NCBI GenBank assembly: GCA_030587475.2
Contig: JAUQYZ020000196.1
Location: 1-11,141, forward strand
From: Candidatus Sigynarchaeum calidifontis
GTDB taxonomy: Archaea > Asgardarchaeota > Lokiarchaeia > Sigyniarchaeales > Sigyniarchaeaceae
Direction of reading: 5' to 3'
DNA: 11,141 nt
Shown: positions 409-7,718 of the stretch, piece after piece
Numbering within the stretch: position 1 is the stretch's first letter
Layout of the letters: each line of letters begins with the position of its first letter
Notes under the pieces: generated by a model
Told to the model about the DNA's origin: nothing
The model's input: only the letters and a program-made list of their open reading frames with translations
The model's database searches: none
Made by a program: the position numbers and the translations under genes

Positions 409-3081
409 TCAGAAGATGCCCGATCCGAGGATAGGCCGGCTCACCAGCACGTCCGGCTCGACGTGCCATTTCGAGACATGCGCATCCTTGAACGCGTCAA
501 CGACGTGCCTGGTATGTTCCCGTTCGACGAGCACCATGACGCAACCGCCCAGCCCTGCTCCCGATATTTGCGCTCCCAAGACACCAGGTCGTGTTTTCAT
601 GTAGTCCACGATGAAATCGATTTCTGGAATGCTGCACCGGTAACCACCAGGCACGTTTTCTATCGGTGTATCAGCATCGTATAGGCAATCAAGAAACGCC
701 TCGCTGAAAACGAGCCGGAATGGTCGAGGCTGCGAGCCTTGCGAGAAATCATCAAACGAAACAACGCGATCCCCGTCGTGAGACACGCACATCATCTGCC
801 CGATGGCGCCGATCGAACCGCTGGACAAGAGGTCCATGAACCGCCGGCTCCTGTGGCACTCGGCGATGCCATACACGAGCACTTCCCGCAGCGAGATCAC
901 GTCATCATCATCATCGAACGAGCTGAATTTCTTGCGCAGCGATTGGATGGTCTCGGAATGGAGATACAAGTTCAGATCGCCGAGCCGAATCGATTCCGAA
1001 ACGGCCTTCAACAGGCGATACACGTCACGGGGCGGCACGTGCAAGTTTTCGCCCGACACGTCCCGCAAATGATGCAGCCTGGCCTCGTGCTCGGGATGCC
1101 GCTCGCGCAGGATCTGGAAGCCGATTTCATAGGCGAGCACCTTCTCGTTGAACTGCCGCAGCTCGCTGCCGGACTTCTTGGCCTTCCGCATCGAGTTGAT
1201 CACGAGCAAATCGATGCCGGGCGGGAACGATGCAGACCCCTTGATCTCGAAGGGGAAAAAGCCCATGCGGGTCACGTGCCCGGGGCGGGCGAGCTTGATC
1301 GCCGCGTGGTCCGACGAGCCGCCCCGCGTCCCGACGAACCACTCGCCCTCGCCGCACAGGTCGATGAACTCCGACGGCTTCAGCGGGACGCCGTTCACGT
1401 TGATCAAGCACTCCAACATCGCCACGACGAGTGCCGACGAGCTCGACAGCCCGGCTGCTTGTGGTATGTCACCATGCACGTAGACGCTCGCCCCGTGCAG
1501 CGTCTTGGTAGGCATGCTGGCCTGGAGCCGCAACGCCGCGGCCTTCAAGTAGTTCGACCAGTCCCCCCCGGCATCCCGCACCATGGCATTTATTCGCTCG
1601 TTCGTGATGAAGCCGAACCAGTCGCTCCACTCGACTGACGAGATGATTTCCCCGATATCGAACACGCATGCCTTGTGCACGTCGTGGTCGTGGTTATACG
1701 CGACGATGACCGGGTCTTCGCGCGGCGCCGCGACGACGATGACCTCGCGGTCGATCGCGATCATGTTGACATCGCCACCGCGGTGGTCGACGTGGCGGCC
1801 CATGAGGTTCACGCGCCCCGGCGCCCTCGCGATGAAGGCTCCGGCGGCCTCGGGAAACTTCTCCTTGAACCCCGCGAGCGCCGCCAGGTACTGCGCAACC
1901 TTCTCATTAATGCGAGTATAGCCGACCCCGTAGATTTGCTCCATGCGAGCGAGCACCCGAGCGTCCCGCGCCTCGAAAGCACGGATCCAATCGTCGACAG
2001 GTCGCAAGCCGGGGATCATGCCCCGCGCCTCCCGGTCATGATCGACCGCTCGCTCCTTCGACGCGACGTACTCGTTAATTTTGACGAGCTCCTCCGGATT
2101 GTTGAAGGAGAGCAGCTCCTCGGGCCGCAGGAGGGGAACGGGAAGGATCTCGTGCCCGTGTTCGCTGAAAATCTGGACGATGTCCGTCAAGTATTCCTCG
2201 TTCTGTGCATTGTCGGACAGGATGCGGTCGATGTACATGTACCACAAAGCGCTCCTCGCGAGGTAGACGGAGACGTTCACGTGGCGGGCGGTTCGCTCGA
2301 TGTCTTCGGGATCCAGCAGCTCGCCTCGCAACCGGAATGCCCGGGGAACCGGCCCGATAGCCCGATGGATCGCTTCGAGCGTCACTTGGCCACGAGGCAC
2401 CGCCGCCGCGCCGCCGAACACGATGCCGGCAATCTCGGGGAACAGTTTCCGCGCCCGCTGCTCGTCCTTCAAGATGCGGATCATGGCTTGCCGTGTCGCC
2501 TCGATGATTTGGACGATATCGACGGGTTCCCGAGCCGAACCGATCACGCCCTCGATTTCCTTGGCGACGGCAGCCTTCATGATGTCCCAGTACTCGATGG
2601 ATGCGACGACCGCCCCGTCCTTCCCAGTCACGATCCTGCCGGAGTCGGGCGAGAACCGTTTTTCCTTGACGAGGAGGGCCATGCCGGGCGCATCCGCCTT
2701 GTATCGCGCGATCAGCCGCTCGATCGCCCCGGGCTCGACATGGGCATCGCCAGGCACGATGAGCACGTCGCCAGCAAAGCCCGATGCCTGGAGATAATGT
2801 AGCCCCGCCTTTGCTGCGTTTCCAGTCCCTCGCGGCATGGCCTGGTAGACGTAGGCGACGTCCGGGAACCGCTTCGACACCACGCCCATGACCTGGTCGC
2901 TGAATGCGCCGACGACGATGACGTTATGCACCACTCCCGCAGCACGCAAGTTTTCAAGCAGCCTGATGATGGCCGGCTTCCCCGCGATCTCGAACGTCGA
3001 CTTGTGCTTGTCCTTGACGCCCATGCGGGTGCCTTTCCCGCCGGCCATGATAATGGCGGCGATGCGCTGCGACTCGACCAT
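409..3081 (-). CDS. Bifunctional sugar-1-phosphate nucleotidyltransferase (GlmU N-domain-like) / GHMP sugar kinase (galactokinase/galacturonokinase-like) fusion
   Basis: N-half has AIIMAGGKGTRM, QxxPRGTGxA, VPGD, NAQNEEYLTDIV and SFNNPEEL. C-half has APGRVNLMGRHVDH, IPQAAGLSSSSAL, the catalytic-Asp region GGSSDH and GAQISGAGLGGC. Start placed at ATG 3081 (MVESQRIAAII, ~890 aa); the ORF is open to 3138. Confidence 0.9.
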   Translation of the reverse strand: MVESQRIAAIIMAGGKGTRMGVKDKHKSTFEIAGKPAIIRLLENLRAAGVVHNVIVVGAFSDQVMGVVSKRFPDVAYVYQAMPRGTGNAAKAGLHYLQASGFAGDVLIVPGDAHVEPGAIERLIARYKADAPGMALLVKEKRFSPDSGRIVTGKDGAVVASIEYWDIMKAAVAKEIEGVIGSAREPVDIVQIIEATRQAMIRILKDEQRARKLFPEIAGIVFGGAAAVPRGQVTLEAIHRAIGPVPRAFRLRGELLDPEDIERTARHVNVSVYLARSALWYMYIDRILSDNAQNEEYLTDIVQIFSEHGHEILPVPLLRPEELLSFNNPEELVKINEYVASKERAVDHDREARGMIPGLRPVDDWIRAFEARDARVLARMEQIYGVGYTRINEKVAQYLAALAGFKEKFPEAAGAFIARAPGRVNLMGRHVDHRGGDVNMIAIDREVIVVAAPREDPVIVAYNHDHDVHKACVFDIGEIISSVEWSDWFGFITNERINAMVRDAGGDWSNYLKAAALRLQASMPTKTLHGASVYVHGDIPQAAGLSSSSALVVAMLECLINVNGVPLKPSEFIDLCGEGEWFVGTRGGSSDHAAIKLARPGHVTRMGFFPFEIKGSASFPPGIDLLVINSMRKAKKSGSELRQFNEKVLAYEIGFQILRERHPEHEARLHHLRDVSGENLHVPPRDVYRLLKAVSESIRLGDLNLYLHSETIQSLRKKFSSFDDDDDVISLREVLVYGIAECHRSRRFMDLLSSGSIGAIGQMMCVSHDGDRVVSFDDFSQGSQPRPFRLVFSEAFLDCLYDADTPIENVPGGYRCSIPEIDFIVDYMKTRPGVLGAQISGAGLGGCVMVLVEREHTRHVVDAFKDAHVSKWHVEPDVLVSRPILGSGIF

Positions 3082-3235
3082 GAGATCGGCAACTCCCTGG
3101 ATACGAGTGCTATTACGGAACGGGACCATTTGAACCAAGTGGATGGACCGCGCCTTGATAATGCGGGAACGACATCGGCCGTGAAGGATCCATGTCGATC
3201 CACGAATCGCTGGCCATTACTCCCCCGCCACGATA

Positions 3236-3585: not shown

Positions 3586-4608
3586 TTGAACCTCATGATC
3601 ACGGGCGCGTGTGGTTTCATCGGTTCCCATCTGGTGGACTTTTGCCTGTCGAAAGGGCATCGCGTCCTCGCTACAGTCAAGCCAGGCATGGATCCGGTCA
3701 ATCTACGCCATGTCAATTGCAAGGGAAAGAAGCCACCATCGGGACTCGAGATCGTGGAGATGGACGTCCGCGACGCGATGAGCGTGCACTCGATCATCGA
3801 GCGATTCAAACCGGACGCCATCTTCCACATGGCCGCGCAGAGCCTCGTCCAGCCATCCTGGGAGGATCCCGTGGAGACCATCGACACGAACGTGAACGGC
3901 ACCGTGAACGTGTTCGAGGCAGTGAAGCGGTCGGGATTGAAGACACGCATCGTGGTCGCGTGCAGCAGCGCGGAATACGGCGTGATCTCGAAAGACGACG
4001 TGCCCATCAAGGAGACACTTCCCTTGCAGCCGCTCCATCCCTACGGAATCAGCAAGGTCGGTCAAGACTTGATGGCACGCCAGTACTTCGCCAACTTCGG
4101 CATCGACACGGTCAGGCTGCGGTACTTCAACCAGACTGGCATCCGGAAGGTGAGAGACGCGTGCGCCGATTTCGCCATGAAAATAGCCGAGATTGATGCC
4201 GGAAAAGCCGAGCCGGTGATGCATGTAGGCAATCTAGAGACGCAGCGCGACATTCAGGACATCCGGGACACGATCGCGGCCACGTGGCTGGCGTTCGAGA
4301 AAGGCGAGAAAGGCGAGGTCTACAACATCTGCACGGGCGTGCCGACCCGCATACGTGATGCGCTCGAGGTGCTGCTCAGCTTTTCATCGAAGCGGATCAC
4401 GATAATCGAAGGCACACCCGAGAAGATGCGGATCCAGGACGAGCCGGTCATCGTCGGGGATAATTCGCGTTTCATCAAGGCGACCGGCTTTCGCCCGGTT
4501 TACACCATCCGTGACACGCTGCGGTCGATGTTCGATTATTGGAAGGGCTATTACTCGTCGAATAACCCGGCAGGATATTACCAATCTTTTTACTTGAACG
4601 TGGCTTGA
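3586..4608 (+). CDS. Extended SDR, GDP-mannose 4,6-dehydratase / GDP-4-keto-6-deoxy-sugar reductase (Rmd-like) family
   Basis: ITGACGFIGSHL, HMAAQS..SWEDP...NVNGT, SSAEYG, YGISK (YxxxK), RYFNQTG and VGNLETQRD. It lacks the GMD-type STSE signature, so it is more reductase (Rmd)-like. Confidence 0.85.
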   Translation: MNLMITGACGFIGSHLVDFCLSKGHRVLATVKPGMDPVNLRHVNCKGKKPPSGLEIVEMDVRDAMSVHSIIERFKPDAIFHMAAQSLVQPSWEDPVETIDTNVNGTVNVFEAVKRSGLKTRIVVACSSAEYGVISKDDVPIKETLPLQPLHPYGISKVGQDLMARQYFANFGIDTVRLRYFNQTGIRKVRDACADFAMKIAEIDAGKAEPVMHVGNLETQRDIQDIRDTIAATWLAFEKGEKGEVYNICTGVPTRIRDALEVLLSFSSKRITIIEGTPEKMRIQDEPVIVGDNSRFIKATGFRPVYTIRDTLRSMFDYWKGYYSSNNPAGYYQSFYLNVA

Positions 4609-4809: not shown

Positions 4810-5754
4810 ATGCTGAAGGACAAGAACGTCCTGGTCACTGGCGCCGCTGGTTTCATCGGTAGTAACCTGGTGGACGCGCTGCTTGCTGACGGCGCCCGTG
4901 TCGTCGGCTTGGACAACATGTTCAACGGCCGGATGGAAAACCTCGCCACGGCATCAACCTCGCCCCGCTTCACGTTCGTGAAGGGCGACGTCCGGGACAT
5001 GGATTTCTTGCTCGAAGCCATGAAAGGCATCGACATCGTCTACCACGAGGCCGCGTTCACGAGCGTCCCGCAGTCCGTCAAGATGCCGCAGCTCTGCAAC
5101 GACGTCAACGTCGGCGGCATGGTCAACGTCTTGAACGCGGCGAGGATCCGGGACGTGAAACGGGTCGTGTTCGCGTCCAGCTCGGCAGTCTACGGGGACA
5201 CCCCGACGCTGCCGAAACACGAGGAGATGCCGCTGCACCCGATCTCGCCCTACGGCGTCTCCAAGATGGCGGCCGAGGCATATTGCATCGCCTACCACCA
5301 CGTCTACGGCCTTGAAACCGTCGCTCTCCGTTATTTCAACGTTTTCGGCTCCCGCCAGAAGGATTCCCCATACAGCGGCGTCATCGCTATTTTCCTCGCC
5401 AAGATCATGAAAGGCGAGAACCCGACCATCTTCGGCGACGGCAAGCAGTCCCGCGACTTCACCTACGTGAAGGACGTCGTCCGCGCCAACATGCTGGCGG
5501 CCACGTCGGTAAACGCCGCCGGCAAGGCCATCAACGTCGCGTCGGGCAAGCCCATCACGCTGAACGAGCTCACGGGGATCATGTTCAAGGCTTGCAAGCA
5601 AGACAAGTTGAAGATCCAGTACGCCGCCAAGCGGACGGGCGACATCCTCCACAGCTTCGCGGACATCGCGCTCGCGAAAAAAGTCCTGGACTTCGTCCCG
5701 CAGTACGATGCCGTGAGCGGCTTCGAGGATCTCGTGAAATCAATGAAGGGATGA
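4810..5754 (+). CDS. NAD-dependent epimerase/dehydratase, UDP-glucose/UDP-GlcNAc 4-epimerase (WbpP/GalE-like extended SDR)
   Basis: VTGAAGFIGSNL, ASSSAVYG, SPYGVSK, LRYFNVFGxRQ, YSGVI, IFGDGKQSRDFTYV and RTGDILHS. Confidence 0.9.
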   Translation: MLKDKNVLVTGAAGFIGSNLVDALLADGARVVGLDNMFNGRMENLATASTSPRFTFVKGDVRDMDFLLEAMKGIDIVYHEAAFTSVPQSVKMPQLCNDVNVGGMVNVLNAARIRDVKRVVFASSSAVYGDTPTLPKHEEMPLHPISPYGVSKMAAEAYCIAYHHVYGLETVALRYFNVFGSRQKDSPYSGVIAIFLAKIMKGENPTIFGDGKQSRDFTYVKDVVRANMLAATSVNAAGKAINVASGKPITLNELTGIMFKACKQDKLKIQYAAKRTGDILHSFADIALAKKVLDFVPQYDAVSGFEDLVKSMKG

Positions 5755-5774
5755 ATCTCGTTCCCGATTGGCAT

Positions 5775-5828
5775 TCATTTTTGCCAGACTTCCAGCCCCG
5801 TGAAGTTGAACTTGAACGGCAGGATCTG
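5775..5828 (-). repeat. Direct repeat copy A: orphan 3' end of the GHMP kinase gene (QILPFKFNFTGLEVWQK*); att-like
   Basis: 48/54 nt identical to 6717-6770. 5797-5828 is identical to 6739-6770 (CCCGTGAAGTTGAACTTGAACGGCAGGATCTG). Confidence 0.95.
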
Positions 5829-5918
5829 CCGCCGTGTTAAGCGTGCAGGCGATGGCCTAGAGCTGTTTAATGGGTATATATGCGTTGATTTATGCAAAAG
5901 ACAACCAATACAGATTAA

Positions 5919-5946
5919 TTCTCAAAACACTTGATCTTGTTGAGAA
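5919..5946. promoter_or_regulatory. Inverted repeat TTCTCAA-N14-TTGAGAA in the AT-rich TA promoter region; possible operator
   Basis: Perfect 7-bp arms about 40 bp upstream of ATG 5983. TATATA at 5876-5881 and SD-like GAGGTG at 5966-5971. Confidence 0.35.
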
Positions 5947-5982
5947 AAACAGTCCCATCGCACGAGAGGTGCCGGTATTACC

Positions 5983-6296
5983 ATGAAAGGTAAAAAAAAA
6001 AGAATGGAGACCTCGTAAGTCTTCTATCCATTCTTCGATCCAACTCGAACATTCTTCAACGCGAGTACAAGGTCGCTCGCATCGGTATATTTGGTTCACG
6101 AGCACGTGGCGATAGCTTACCTCGCAGTGATATAGACATCCTCGTGCAATTCAAGGAACCGGTTGGTTTGTTCCTTTTTTCCGGGCTCAAACAGTTCCTC
6201 GAGTCGATCTTCGGGCTTGATGTGGATCTTGCAACTCCTGATGCCCTGCGGGACGAGTTTCGCGAGGACGTGTTAAAAGAGGTGGCTTATGCATGA
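5983..6296 (+). pseudogene. mntA: Minimal nucleotidyltransferase (MNT, MntA-type antitoxin), frameshifted at an A10 tract
   Basis: The ATG 5983 frame gives MKGKKKRMETS*. The -1 frame, opening after TAA 5991-5993, gives KNGDLVSLLSILRSNSNILQREYKVARIGIFGSRARGDSLPRSDIDILVQFKEPVGLF...VDLATPDALRDEFREDVLKEVAYA*, with GS and DxD motifs. That frame has no ATG/GTG/TTG before the catalytic motifs. Its stop overlaps the HEPN start (ATGA). Confidence 0.88.
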
Positions 6297-6685
6297 AACC
6301 ACCAGCAAAATCCTCGAAGCCACAACGCCAACGCAAGCCAGCAAAGGGTCGGTCTGTCAAGCTATACTTGAAAGATATTCTTTCAGCGATTAACAAGATT
6401 ATTACGTGGACAAAAGGAATGAATTTCGAAGAATTCTCCAAGAATGACATTCTCGTTGATGCAATCGTTCGGAACTTGGAAATTATCGGGGAGGCAGCAA
6501 GTGTTCTCCCTCGGAATGTAACATCAACACATTCAGAAGTTCAATGGAAGCAAGTTGTCGGTATGCGAGATATCATCGCCTATGGATATTTTAAGGTGGA
6601 TCTCAATATTATCTGGACGACAATCTCAGAAAACCTACCTAAACTGCATCCGGTAATCGAGAAAATGATATCTGAAACCGAGTAA
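6293..6685 (+). CDS. hepT: HEPN/DUF86 family toxin (HepT-like RNase) with altered catalytic motif
   Basis: LYLKDIL..I..I, DAIVRNLEIIGEAA, W..VVGMRDIIAYGYF.VD..IIW. The canonical RX4HxY motif reads RDIIAYGY. Confidence 0.9.
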   Translation: MKPPAKSSKPQRQRKPAKGRSVKLYLKDILSAINKIITWTKGMNFEEFSKNDILVDAIVRNLEIIGEAASVLPRNVTSTHSEVQWKQVVGMRDIIAYGYFKVDLNIIWTTISENLPKLHPVIEKMISETE

Positions 6686-6716
6686 AGAAACCAGGAATAA
6701 ATTATAGCCATTATCC

Positions 6717-6770
6717 TTATTTCTGCCACACTTGCAAGCCCGTGAAGTTGAACTTGAACGGCAGGATCTG
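6717..6770 (-). repeat. Direct repeat copy B: current 3' end of the GHMP kinase gene (QILPFKFNFTGLQVWQK*)
   Basis: Matches 5775-5828 with 6 mismatches, all in the distal 22 nt. Confidence 0.95.
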
Positions 6771-7718
6771 GAACCCGGCGGCGACGATGTCCTTCTTCAA
6801 GCCGTATTCCTTGCCGGTTGCCGACAAGATGACCGCAGACCCGCCGCCGCCCGCCCCGTTCACCTTGAAGCCGAGCGCCCCGTGCTTCGTCGCGAGCTGC
6901 TCAAGGGTCGCGATCTCGCTCGTCGTGATCCTCTCGTGCAGCGCCTTCTGCGCGGCCCAATTCTTGTTCATGATGGCCCCGATGCGGTCGATGTCGCAGC
7001 GGTGCACGGCCTGGACCATTTCCTTGGGGCACGCCTGGAGCGTGTTGAACGCGTCGATGGTTCGTTTTTCTCCTTTTTCGTAGTTCTCGATGACCTTCAA
7101 GTGCATGTCGCTGGAGCTGCGGGATCCGAGGTACACGAGGATCATCTGCTGCTCCAGCTGCCATGTTAGCTCGGGCTTGACATCGATCTGGGATATTCGG
7201 ACCTTCGGGTACTCGATCTCCATGTAATTGAAGCCACCGAACGCCGCCGCGTATTGATCCTGGACGCCGCTTTGCAAGTGAAGCTCTTCGGTCTCTAACT
7301 TGTGCGCTAGCTCGGCAATCTCGTGGTTCACGTAATGGTGGCCATTCAGCACTGACAGCGCACCGATCATGGCGACGGCGATGCTGGCACTCGTTCCCGT
7401 GCCGCAACCGGGCGGGGCATCGGACCGGGCGTAGATCTTGAGCCCTTGCTTGATGCCCAGGCGTTTGATCGCCGACTTGAGGATGTCGAGGATGCCGTTG
7501 TACTCGATCTTGCGGTAATCTTGGATTTCGGTCGAGATGTCCAAGTTCTCCGAGATGATGTCGATCACGGGCGACCCCGCTTGCGGGTACACGCGCACGT
7601 AGCTGTACAAGTCGATGCAGAAGTTGAAGACAGCGCCCGCCTTGCAAAACCACGTGTCTGTCCAGCCGCCCACGTCGCAGATCCGCACGGGCGCCCGCGC
7701 GAAGATGATTTGTTCCAT
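6717..7718 (-). CDS. GHMP sugar kinase, HddA (D-glycero-D-manno-heptose-7-phosphate kinase)/fucokinase-like family
   Basis: RAPVRICDVGGWTD, DAPPGCGTGTSAS, ETEELHLQSGVQDQYAAAFGGFN and KVNGAGGGG. Start reassigned to ATG 7718 (MEQIIFARAP, 333 aa). Confidence 0.88.
   Translation of the reverse strand: MEQIIFARAPVRICDVGGWTDTWFCKAGAVFNFCIDLYSYVRVYPQAGSPVIDIISENLDISTEIQDYRKIEYNGILDILKSAIKRLGIKQGLKIYARSDAPPGCGTGTSASIAVAMIGALSVLNGHHYVNHEIAELAHKLETEELHLQSGVQDQYAAAFGGFNYMEIEYPKVRISQIDVKPELTWQLEQQMILVYLGSRSSSDMHLKVIENYEKGEKRTIDAFNTLQACPKEMVQAVHRCDIDRIGAIMNKNWAAQKALHERITTSEIATLEQLATKHGALGFKVNGAGGGGSAVILSATGKEYGLKKDIVAAGFQILPFKFNFTGLQVWQK

Follow-up and report, generated by a model that had tools for sequence, protein, structure and literature searches.

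A sugar-kinase gene end duplicated around a toxin-antitoxin cassette in Candidatus Sigynarchaeum calidifontis, probably a scar of host recombination

Integrative elements that target the 3' ends of genes carry a replacement terminus, and their integrase-less derivatives are the cis-mobilizable elements (CIMEs). Gene ends are also displaced by homology-facilitated illegitimate recombination (HFIR), which has been reported for transformable bacteria and for conjugation in E. coli (PMC3240628; the model is cited in PMC5361080), and to which the orphan 3' ends of Rhs and contact-dependent inhibition (CDI) genes and the T6SS (type VI secretion system) effector-immunity arrays of Vibrio cholerae have been attributed (PMC5361080). 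Bacteria also have hotspots without mobile elements, the content of which is exchanged through recombination in the neighbouring core genes (Oliveira et al. 2017, PMC5635113). The Asgard mobile elements described in PMC8813620 and PMC11529989 bear integrases and use tRNA genes or short motifs, and term searches of the two papers yielded no passage on an orphan-end pattern. Here, we describe an 11,141-nucleotide (nt) stretch of DNA, hereafter the window, which is the entire contig JAUQYZ020000196.1 (C151) of the Candidatus Sigynarchaeum calidifontis genome, a 4.99-Mb metagenome bin (G000; 89% complete, 5% contamination). In this window, the end of an HddA-like sugar kinase gene is present twice, on both sides of an MNT-HepT toxin-antitoxin pair. 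We refer to the copy that terminates the kinase gene as live, to the copy beside the neighbouring epimerase gene as orphan, and to the DNA between them as cargo.

As in HFIR, the incoming DNA would here be anchored by homology at one end (the kinase) and joined without homology at the other, with no element-encoded enzyme, and what results is an insertion in which a short stretch is duplicated or deleted where the illegitimate join was made; the HFIR experiments were performed in bacteria only, whereas here the process is deduced from scars in an uncultured Asgard archaeon. The Rhs and T6SS arrays resemble the locus in that the incoming module supplies the gene end, the resident end is orphaned downstream, the cargo stacks and an integrase is lacking. 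However, their displaced end is a variable toxic domain whose exchange is the point, whereas the displaced end of a housekeeping sugar kinase stays synonymous and would be a mere by-product, and the cargo consists of toxin-antitoxin pairs and ATPases. Campbell-type insertion-duplication predicts the same succession of hybrid live end, cargo, fragment boundary and resident end, but it needs a circular intermediate, and the homology available here amounts to only about 32-54 nt. Elements integrating at 3' ends, and CIMEs, share with the locus the gene-end direct repeats, the restored reading frame and the foreign cargo; they differ from it in that we observed no integrase, no evident constancy of the crossover point and no conservation of the element ends, and in that the target sequences within one genome are many and unrelated. 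The bacterial hotspots likewise occupy a fixed interval between conserved genes, with different accessory or defence-type genes in each relative and no mobility genes; that work did not involve orphaned gene ends, whereas the scars described here record the joins. As regards integron cassettes, no attC-type inverted repeat was found at the cassette boundaries and no integrase nearby.

Anatomy of the duplicated kinase terminus

The two copies form a direct repeat (5777-5828 and 6719-6770) of 52 nt, 90% identical and with a spacing of 942 nt (blastn E-value 6e-14). With the stop codons included, each copy comprises 54 nt, that is, 17 codons and the stop. The live copy (6717-6770, minus strand), recognized from the sequence and the repeat search, reads QILPFKFNFTGLQVWQK followed by the stop TAA at 6717-6719, and the orphan copy (5775-5828, minus strand) reads QILPFKFNFTGLEVWQK followed by the stop TGA at 5775-5777. 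A stretch of 32 nt (5797-5828 and 6739-6770) is 100% identical and has not a single further occurrence in the genome. The six differences between the copies comprise four synonymous changes, one Glu/Gln exchange and one stop-to-stop change. The orphan stop is separated by a 20-nt spacer (5755-5774) from the stop codon, at 5754, of a convergent NAD-dependent sugar epimerase/dehydratase gene (4810-5754, plus strand; PF01370 at 4e-67); the spacer is probably the former tail-to-tail intergenic spacer. Only an AT-rich stretch and the genes of MNT (PF01909) and HepT (PF01934) lie between the copies. The two copies 942 nt apart, the 32-nt identical core, the six differences, the AT-rich stretch and MNT-HEPN pair between the copies and the 20-nt distance to the epimerase stop had already been listed in a first-pass annotation made from the sequence alone, and they were confirmed here.

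As can be expected of a displacement scar, the body of the kinase gene continues from the live copy, the homology of the orphan breaks off sharply at 5828/5829, and the orphan adjoins the old spacer and the epimerase gene. The GC content is 0.40-0.50 inside the repeats, compared with 0.58-0.65 outside them and a genome mean of 0.54, and by this measure the cargo between the kinase ends is of foreign composition. On the other side, the 11 nt just past the live kinase stop (6706-6716, minus strand; GGATAATGGCT in the kinase orientation) are common to the window and to three related contigs (L033-L035), which hold different cargo, and the sequences diverge beyond these 11 nt. The MNT-HepT cassette therefore did not specifically bring in the live terminus. 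Judged from this comparison with relatives, the right limit of the DNA unique to the window lies in the cassette-side spacer past the HepT stop (6686-6705); the cassette proper is thus placed as ending at about 6705, with window-unique DNA from about 5829 to 6705.

Cargo at the same junction and around other gene ends

The kinase/epimerase junction was compared with that of the sister species (G001, same genus) and of twelve metagenome contigs retrieved with the kinase protein. Every close relative holds different cargo between the two genes, and the interval is a cargo hotspot of this Asgard family, with the epimerase gene as its left edge in the window. In the sister species, the scar is an internal epimerase fragment of 241 nt, 79-83% identical to the live genes (L013, G001:C353, 1372-1612). 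In contig L036 (kinase 81% identical at the amino acid level), the cargo is a HEPN (PF05168)-MNT pair in the gene order opposite to that of the window, with a GC content of 0.40 against 0.58, and it lies between a live and an orphan kinase end that belong to that contig itself. These two ends are 106 nt long and 95% identical, have the stops TGA/TAA and share an identical centre of 61 nt; the orphan is located 6 nt from the epimerase gene. Orphan, spacer and epimerase gene of the window align as a single block with L036, and the contiguity of orphan and epimerase gene was thereby found in a second lineage. In none of the relatives was a full-length second kinase paralogue, which the first-pass annotation had named as the sign of a tandem duplication, present at the site.

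The cargo of L035 (kinase 94%) extends over at least 2.75 kb and contains a 206-amino-acid open reading frame (ORF), a VapB-PIN pair, and a 5'-truncated HEPN gene with an MNT gene, the latter two being 70% nt-identical to the cargo of L036. The HEPN gene (L035, 3040-3692) is reduced to its C-terminal half (77 amino acids) beside the inserted VapBC, and an older cargo appears to have been cut by a newer one. In L034 (kinase 93%), which shares about 128 nt with L035 before the two diverge, an AAA_14-DUF4143 ATPase gene adjoins the epimerase stop and there is no orphan. The nested boundaries and the truncated HEPN gene fit repeated insertions at the kinase stop that pushed or cut older cargo. A contig of the metagenome run X1 is about 90% identical to the epimerase gene and then continues with 431 nt unlike the window. 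More distantly, the kinase gene of L039 (kinase 68%) meets the gene of a different dehydratase tail to tail at a compact junction. A further 28 kinase orthologues of the order (50-64% amino acid identity) lack both an orphan within 1.5 kb and a neighbouring epimerase gene, and the hotspot is therefore confined to this family.

Two further features of these contigs can be mentioned. In the sister species, two adjacent small ORFs of 129 and 126 amino acids without Pfam match (G001:C353, 1726-2507) could be an undescribed two-gene module. In L036, the 5-nt sequence TCGAG is present at the cargo start and at the orphan start, with no counterpart in the window.

The same architecture recurs elsewhere in the genome. 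A self-comparison for direct repeats 150-8000 nt apart identified, besides the window, at least eight loci in which a segment of a host gene is duplicated at 85-95% identity around cargo of lower GC content. In C48, C103 and C268, the duplicated segment is a gene 3' end with its stop; the repeats are of 193, 107 and 87 nt, and the cargo encodes an unknown protein with a BNR protein, an Ig-like protein, and an LRR protein, respectively. C215 and C131 carry ATPase_2-DUF234 genes, and C252 a winged helix-turn-helix protein gene with that of an unknown protein. Two of these loci carry further toxin-antitoxin pairs between duplicated gene segments, as the first-pass annotation had suggested looking for: a ParE toxin gene with an overlapping 77-amino-acid partner between 150-nt repeats (C144, 9497-10846; L028), and a PIN-like ORF with a 122-amino-acid partner between 219-nt repeats (C27, 1073-2526; L026). 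No integrase was found inside any of the bracketed loci examined, and the junctions of ten loci share no motif. Genome-wide, only two matches to PF00589 were obtained (on C86, and a contig-end fragment on C48), neither of them in or beside the examined loci, and none to PF00239 in this 89%-complete genome. The description of the locus as integrase-less thus holds, no recombinase being encoded in the window.

The differences between live and orphan ends were counted in five loci (the window, L036, C48, C103 and C268); C215 was excluded, as its differences are even over the codon positions and its orphan has no stop. As many as 25 of the 39 base differences fall at third codon positions, and silent or stop-to-stop codon differences outnumber replacements by 25 to 12 (5 to 1 in the window alone). 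The stop is kept in every orphan, and none contains an internal stop. The mostly silent differences and the kept stops lead to the conclusion that the copies diverged as working gene ends in different genomes, in agreement with the coding selection that the first-pass annotation had proposed for the incoming terminus; this pattern argues against duplication in situ followed by decay.

Two other arrangements were observed in the genome. On C63 (1-8000; L029), 66-nt gene-end copies occur about every 1.1 kb: a first family at 84, 1233, 3994 and 5045, ending in RYCREHGL and the stop of an LRR protein, and a second gene-end family at 5297, 6407 and 7511, with one or two genes in each interval; this looks like a stacked displacement array. 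On C132, a 51-nt direct repeat (23183-23232 and 26975-27025; L030), 96% identical and resembling a tRNA end (GGGAATTGAACC), brackets 3.7 kb with ORFs of 840 and 351 amino acids, neither with a Pfam match, and this unit may represent an integrative element whose integrase has gone unrecognised.

Proposed origin of the orphan kinase end

From the observed anatomy, hotspot, recurrence, absence of an integrase and selection signature, we infer the recombination pathway, the incoming copy and the order and date of the events as follows. We favour a homology-anchored insertion, or C-terminal displacement, by host recombination with no dedicated integrase, and we consider it probable that foreign cassettes, mostly toxin-antitoxin pairs, enter the junction by means of the host's own recombination. 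DNA of a related archaeon would have carried the 3' part of a kinase gene followed by cargo, and would have paired with the resident kinase gene as homologous anchor; it would be equivalent if a circle had entered through one crossover within the conserved 32 nt. The junction at the far end would have formed without homology, 54 nt ahead of the stop codon of the resident gene, so that the kinase retained a working end and the resident end was displaced downstream as an orphan beside the epimerase gene. Later events would swap or stack cargo at the kinase stop, which would explain why the live end and the following 11 nt are common to relatives with other cargo. The MNT-HepT pair probably persisted for some time as an addiction or defence module and would now be decaying.

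The first-pass annotation had proposed a non-autonomous mini-element comparable to a CIME or a satellite, consisting of the cassette and a kinase-end attachment site (attP), which a site-specific recombinase supplied in trans would insert at a fixed core. Its view of a gene-end-displacing insertion without integrase, with foreign cargo and coding-selected ends, was upheld; the defined 0.94-kb element with its own attachment (att) site was not, and we regard it as unlikely. Several observations speak for such an element: the topology, resembling attL and attR, with the 32-nt identical stretch and the replacement terminus; the overlap, within the gene, of the identical stretches of 32 nt in the window and 61 nt in L036; the presence of a gene for at least one full-length tyrosine recombinase elsewhere in the genome; and a 942-nt contig of another metagenome that carries a relative of the cassette (83-84% identical) and ends near the repeat positions. 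Nevertheless, the same site holds other cargo in each relative, without a recombinase here or at the other loci examined; the kinase end is duplicated over 54 nt in the window and over 106 nt in L036, and the sister species bears the scar of the other flanking gene. A single recombinase cannot serve the unrelated repeats of the other loci (at least eight), which have no common junction motif. Moreover, the live end and its 11 nt are not cassette-specific, and no inverted repeats are present at the core or at the cassette ends. As for the core, the clustering of the differences outside it (hypergeometric ~0.003) was considered as evidence of an attachment site and dismissed, because the same 32 nt are near-invariant among the live copies of the clade anyway (one variable site, against five in the 22-nt tail).

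A single old insertion in the ancestor of the clade, followed by turnover of cargo between the inherited flanks and by gene conversion that kept the orphan core identical, would account for the collinearity of orphan, spacer and epimerase gene in the window and L036, for the sequence past the kinase stop common to L033-L035 and for the stacked, truncated older cargo of L035. We find it improbable, given that each orphan is closest to its own lineage (that of L036 is 95% identical to its own live end and at most 82% to the others), that the orphans differ in length between lineages, that L034 has none, and that mostly silent differences with kept stops are unexpected after long neutral decay. 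Even less probable, and indeed very unlikely, is that the kinase gene was duplicated in tandem and one copy then largely deleted, or that the assembly is chimeric between two strains. The metagenome bin contains 5% contamination, and the two ends differ about as much as between species, which would fit either; however, no relative has a second full-length kinase gene at the site, the DNA between the copies is foreign in composition, and a chimera would still require DNA in which the core adjoins the left end of the cassette. L036, an independent assembly from another study, repeats the architecture with sequences of its own, which makes an artefact or a tandem duplication unlikely. Finally, a dedicated and as yet undescribed gene-capture route in this Asgard family, by which small circles of cargo and gene end loop out from between the duplicated ends and insert again at the homologous gene end in a different cell, seems quite improbable; it could be driven by a trans-acting enzyme not yet recognised or by a recombination system adjusted to very short homology. 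Were it true, host gene termini would be universal attachment sites for toxin-antitoxin pairs, ATPases and surface-protein genes.

It is important to mention the observations that weigh against insertion by host recombination. No empty site was found among the close relatives, and no donor was found. A scan of GTDB genomes for the exact pattern of the orphan-type tail and spacer gave no match, and a scan for the core pattern matched the sister species only. The contigs of the metagenome runs X1 and X2 contain neither a cassette-spanning joint nor a circle junction, an absence that in contigs proves nothing. The six differences between the copies are gathered in the last 22 nt, and a crossover at a fixed core would fit this as well. 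A mosaic test of the kinase gene against L033-L036 and the sister species gave no breakpoint; its identity to L034 (85-94%) is even across the gene and upstream of it, and that to the sister species is even along the gene, and a recent import from a sampled lineage is therefore not visible. As for which end came in, L033/L034, L035 and the sister species differ over the 54 nt from the live end at 3, 4 and 4 positions, and from the orphan at 7, 6 and 4; the live end appears clade-typical, and the orphan, of whose 22 tail positions 5-6 deviate from L033-L035, carries Glu where all nine live ends compared carry Gln. In the Campbell and HFIR schemes alike, the topology would make the orphan the resident end.

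The MNT-HepT cassette, neighbouring genes and significance

The cassette begins with an AT-rich, non-coding leader (5829-5982, plus strand; GC content about 0.42; TATATAT at 5875-5881), which is presumed to be the promoter region. It is followed by the gene of an MntA-type MNT nucleotidyltransferase antitoxin (5983-6296, plus strand; PF01909 at 3e-17) and that of a HepT (DUF86/HEPN) toxin (6293-6685, plus strand; PF01934 at 1e-26). The order of the two genes, the 4-nt overlap of the HepT start with the MNT stop (ATGA, 6293-6296) and the Pfam scores above the cut-offs are those of type VII HepT-MntA systems; the NCBIfam equivalog scores are under the cut-off (about 40 against 60 bits). The MNT motif is also present (GSRARGD...SDIDI, of the GS...DxD or GSx10DxD type), as is the HepT Tyr two residues past the Rx4-6H motif. 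The pair departs from the type VII systems at two points. The Rx4-6H motif of HepT reads R92-D-I-I-A-Y97-G-Y99 (RDIIAYGY, 6566-6589), the catalytic His being replaced by Tyr (Y97; TAT at 6581-6583), whereas His occupies this column in eight of nine homologues; the toxin is thus probably inactive. The MNT gene has no in-frame start as assembled: its conserved frame is open from 5994, with no in-frame ATG, GTG or TTG before 6144, and the ATG at 5983 yields MKGKKKRMETS and a stop. One more A in the A10 run at 5992-6001 would join this ATG to the MNT frame, and the missing start may reflect a true frameshift, slippage during transcription or an error in the homopolymer. With Tyr in place of the catalytic His in HepT and with the antitoxin frame interrupted in the assembly, the module is probably decaying, and by its sequence probably dead or dying unless the homopolymer was misread.

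The cassette was not found in 40 relatives. The relatives of HepT in species-representative genomes are at most 49% identical and mostly bacterial; none was detected in IMG/VR, and phmmer gave no match in the PDB. The two other MNT-HepT pairs of the genome (C158 and C10; 45% and 32% amino acid identity) are without bracketing repeats. tRNA and Rfam searches at the site gave no match.

The relative of the cassette in the X2 run was aligned over positions 5903-6702 of the window, and a net loss of 2 nt at the A10 region places the ATG in frame in it. The flanking genes are on contigs separate from it in this run; the repeat or a population polymorphism may interrupt the assembly at the flanks, and the equal length of 942 nt is maybe a coincidence.

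The junction lies in a sugar-nucleotide gene cluster, as indicated by Pfam and NCBIfam matches. The kinase gene itself (6717-7718, minus strand; PF00288 and PF08544) encodes a GHMP kinase of 333 amino acids from the ATG at 7718, and its best NCBIfam match is HddA (NF049969), matched over the full length with 159 bits against an equivalog cut-off of 600; the label HddA-like, taken from the first-pass annotation, is fair within this limit. The protein is 89% identical to that of the sister species and 93-94% to those of L033-L035, and the epimerase gene is 84% nt-identical to that of the sister species and 90% to that of L034. Farther away are a 4,6-dehydratase-like gene (3586-4608) and a nucleotidyltransferase-GHMP kinase fusion gene (409-3138, minus strand; 909 amino acids). 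The fusion, which belongs to an Asgard glycan cluster, combines an NTP-transferase with a GHMP sugar kinase bearing the galactokinase signature, and recalls the bifunctional fucokinase/GDP-fucose pyrophosphorylase.

These data carry a warning for annotation: orphan gene ends and dead toxin-antitoxin genes, such as a HepT with His replaced by Tyr and a frameshifted MNT, should not be called functional. The locus can be read as a dated scar of the gain of accessory genes by an Asgard archaeon without a mobile-element enzyme, in which one interval of a sugar-nucleotide cluster collects and discards toxin-antitoxin modules. If the pattern has the generality that this genome suggests, host recombination that inserts DNA and displaces gene ends would rank among the main routes by which genes flow in the archaeal lineage nearest to eukaryotes.

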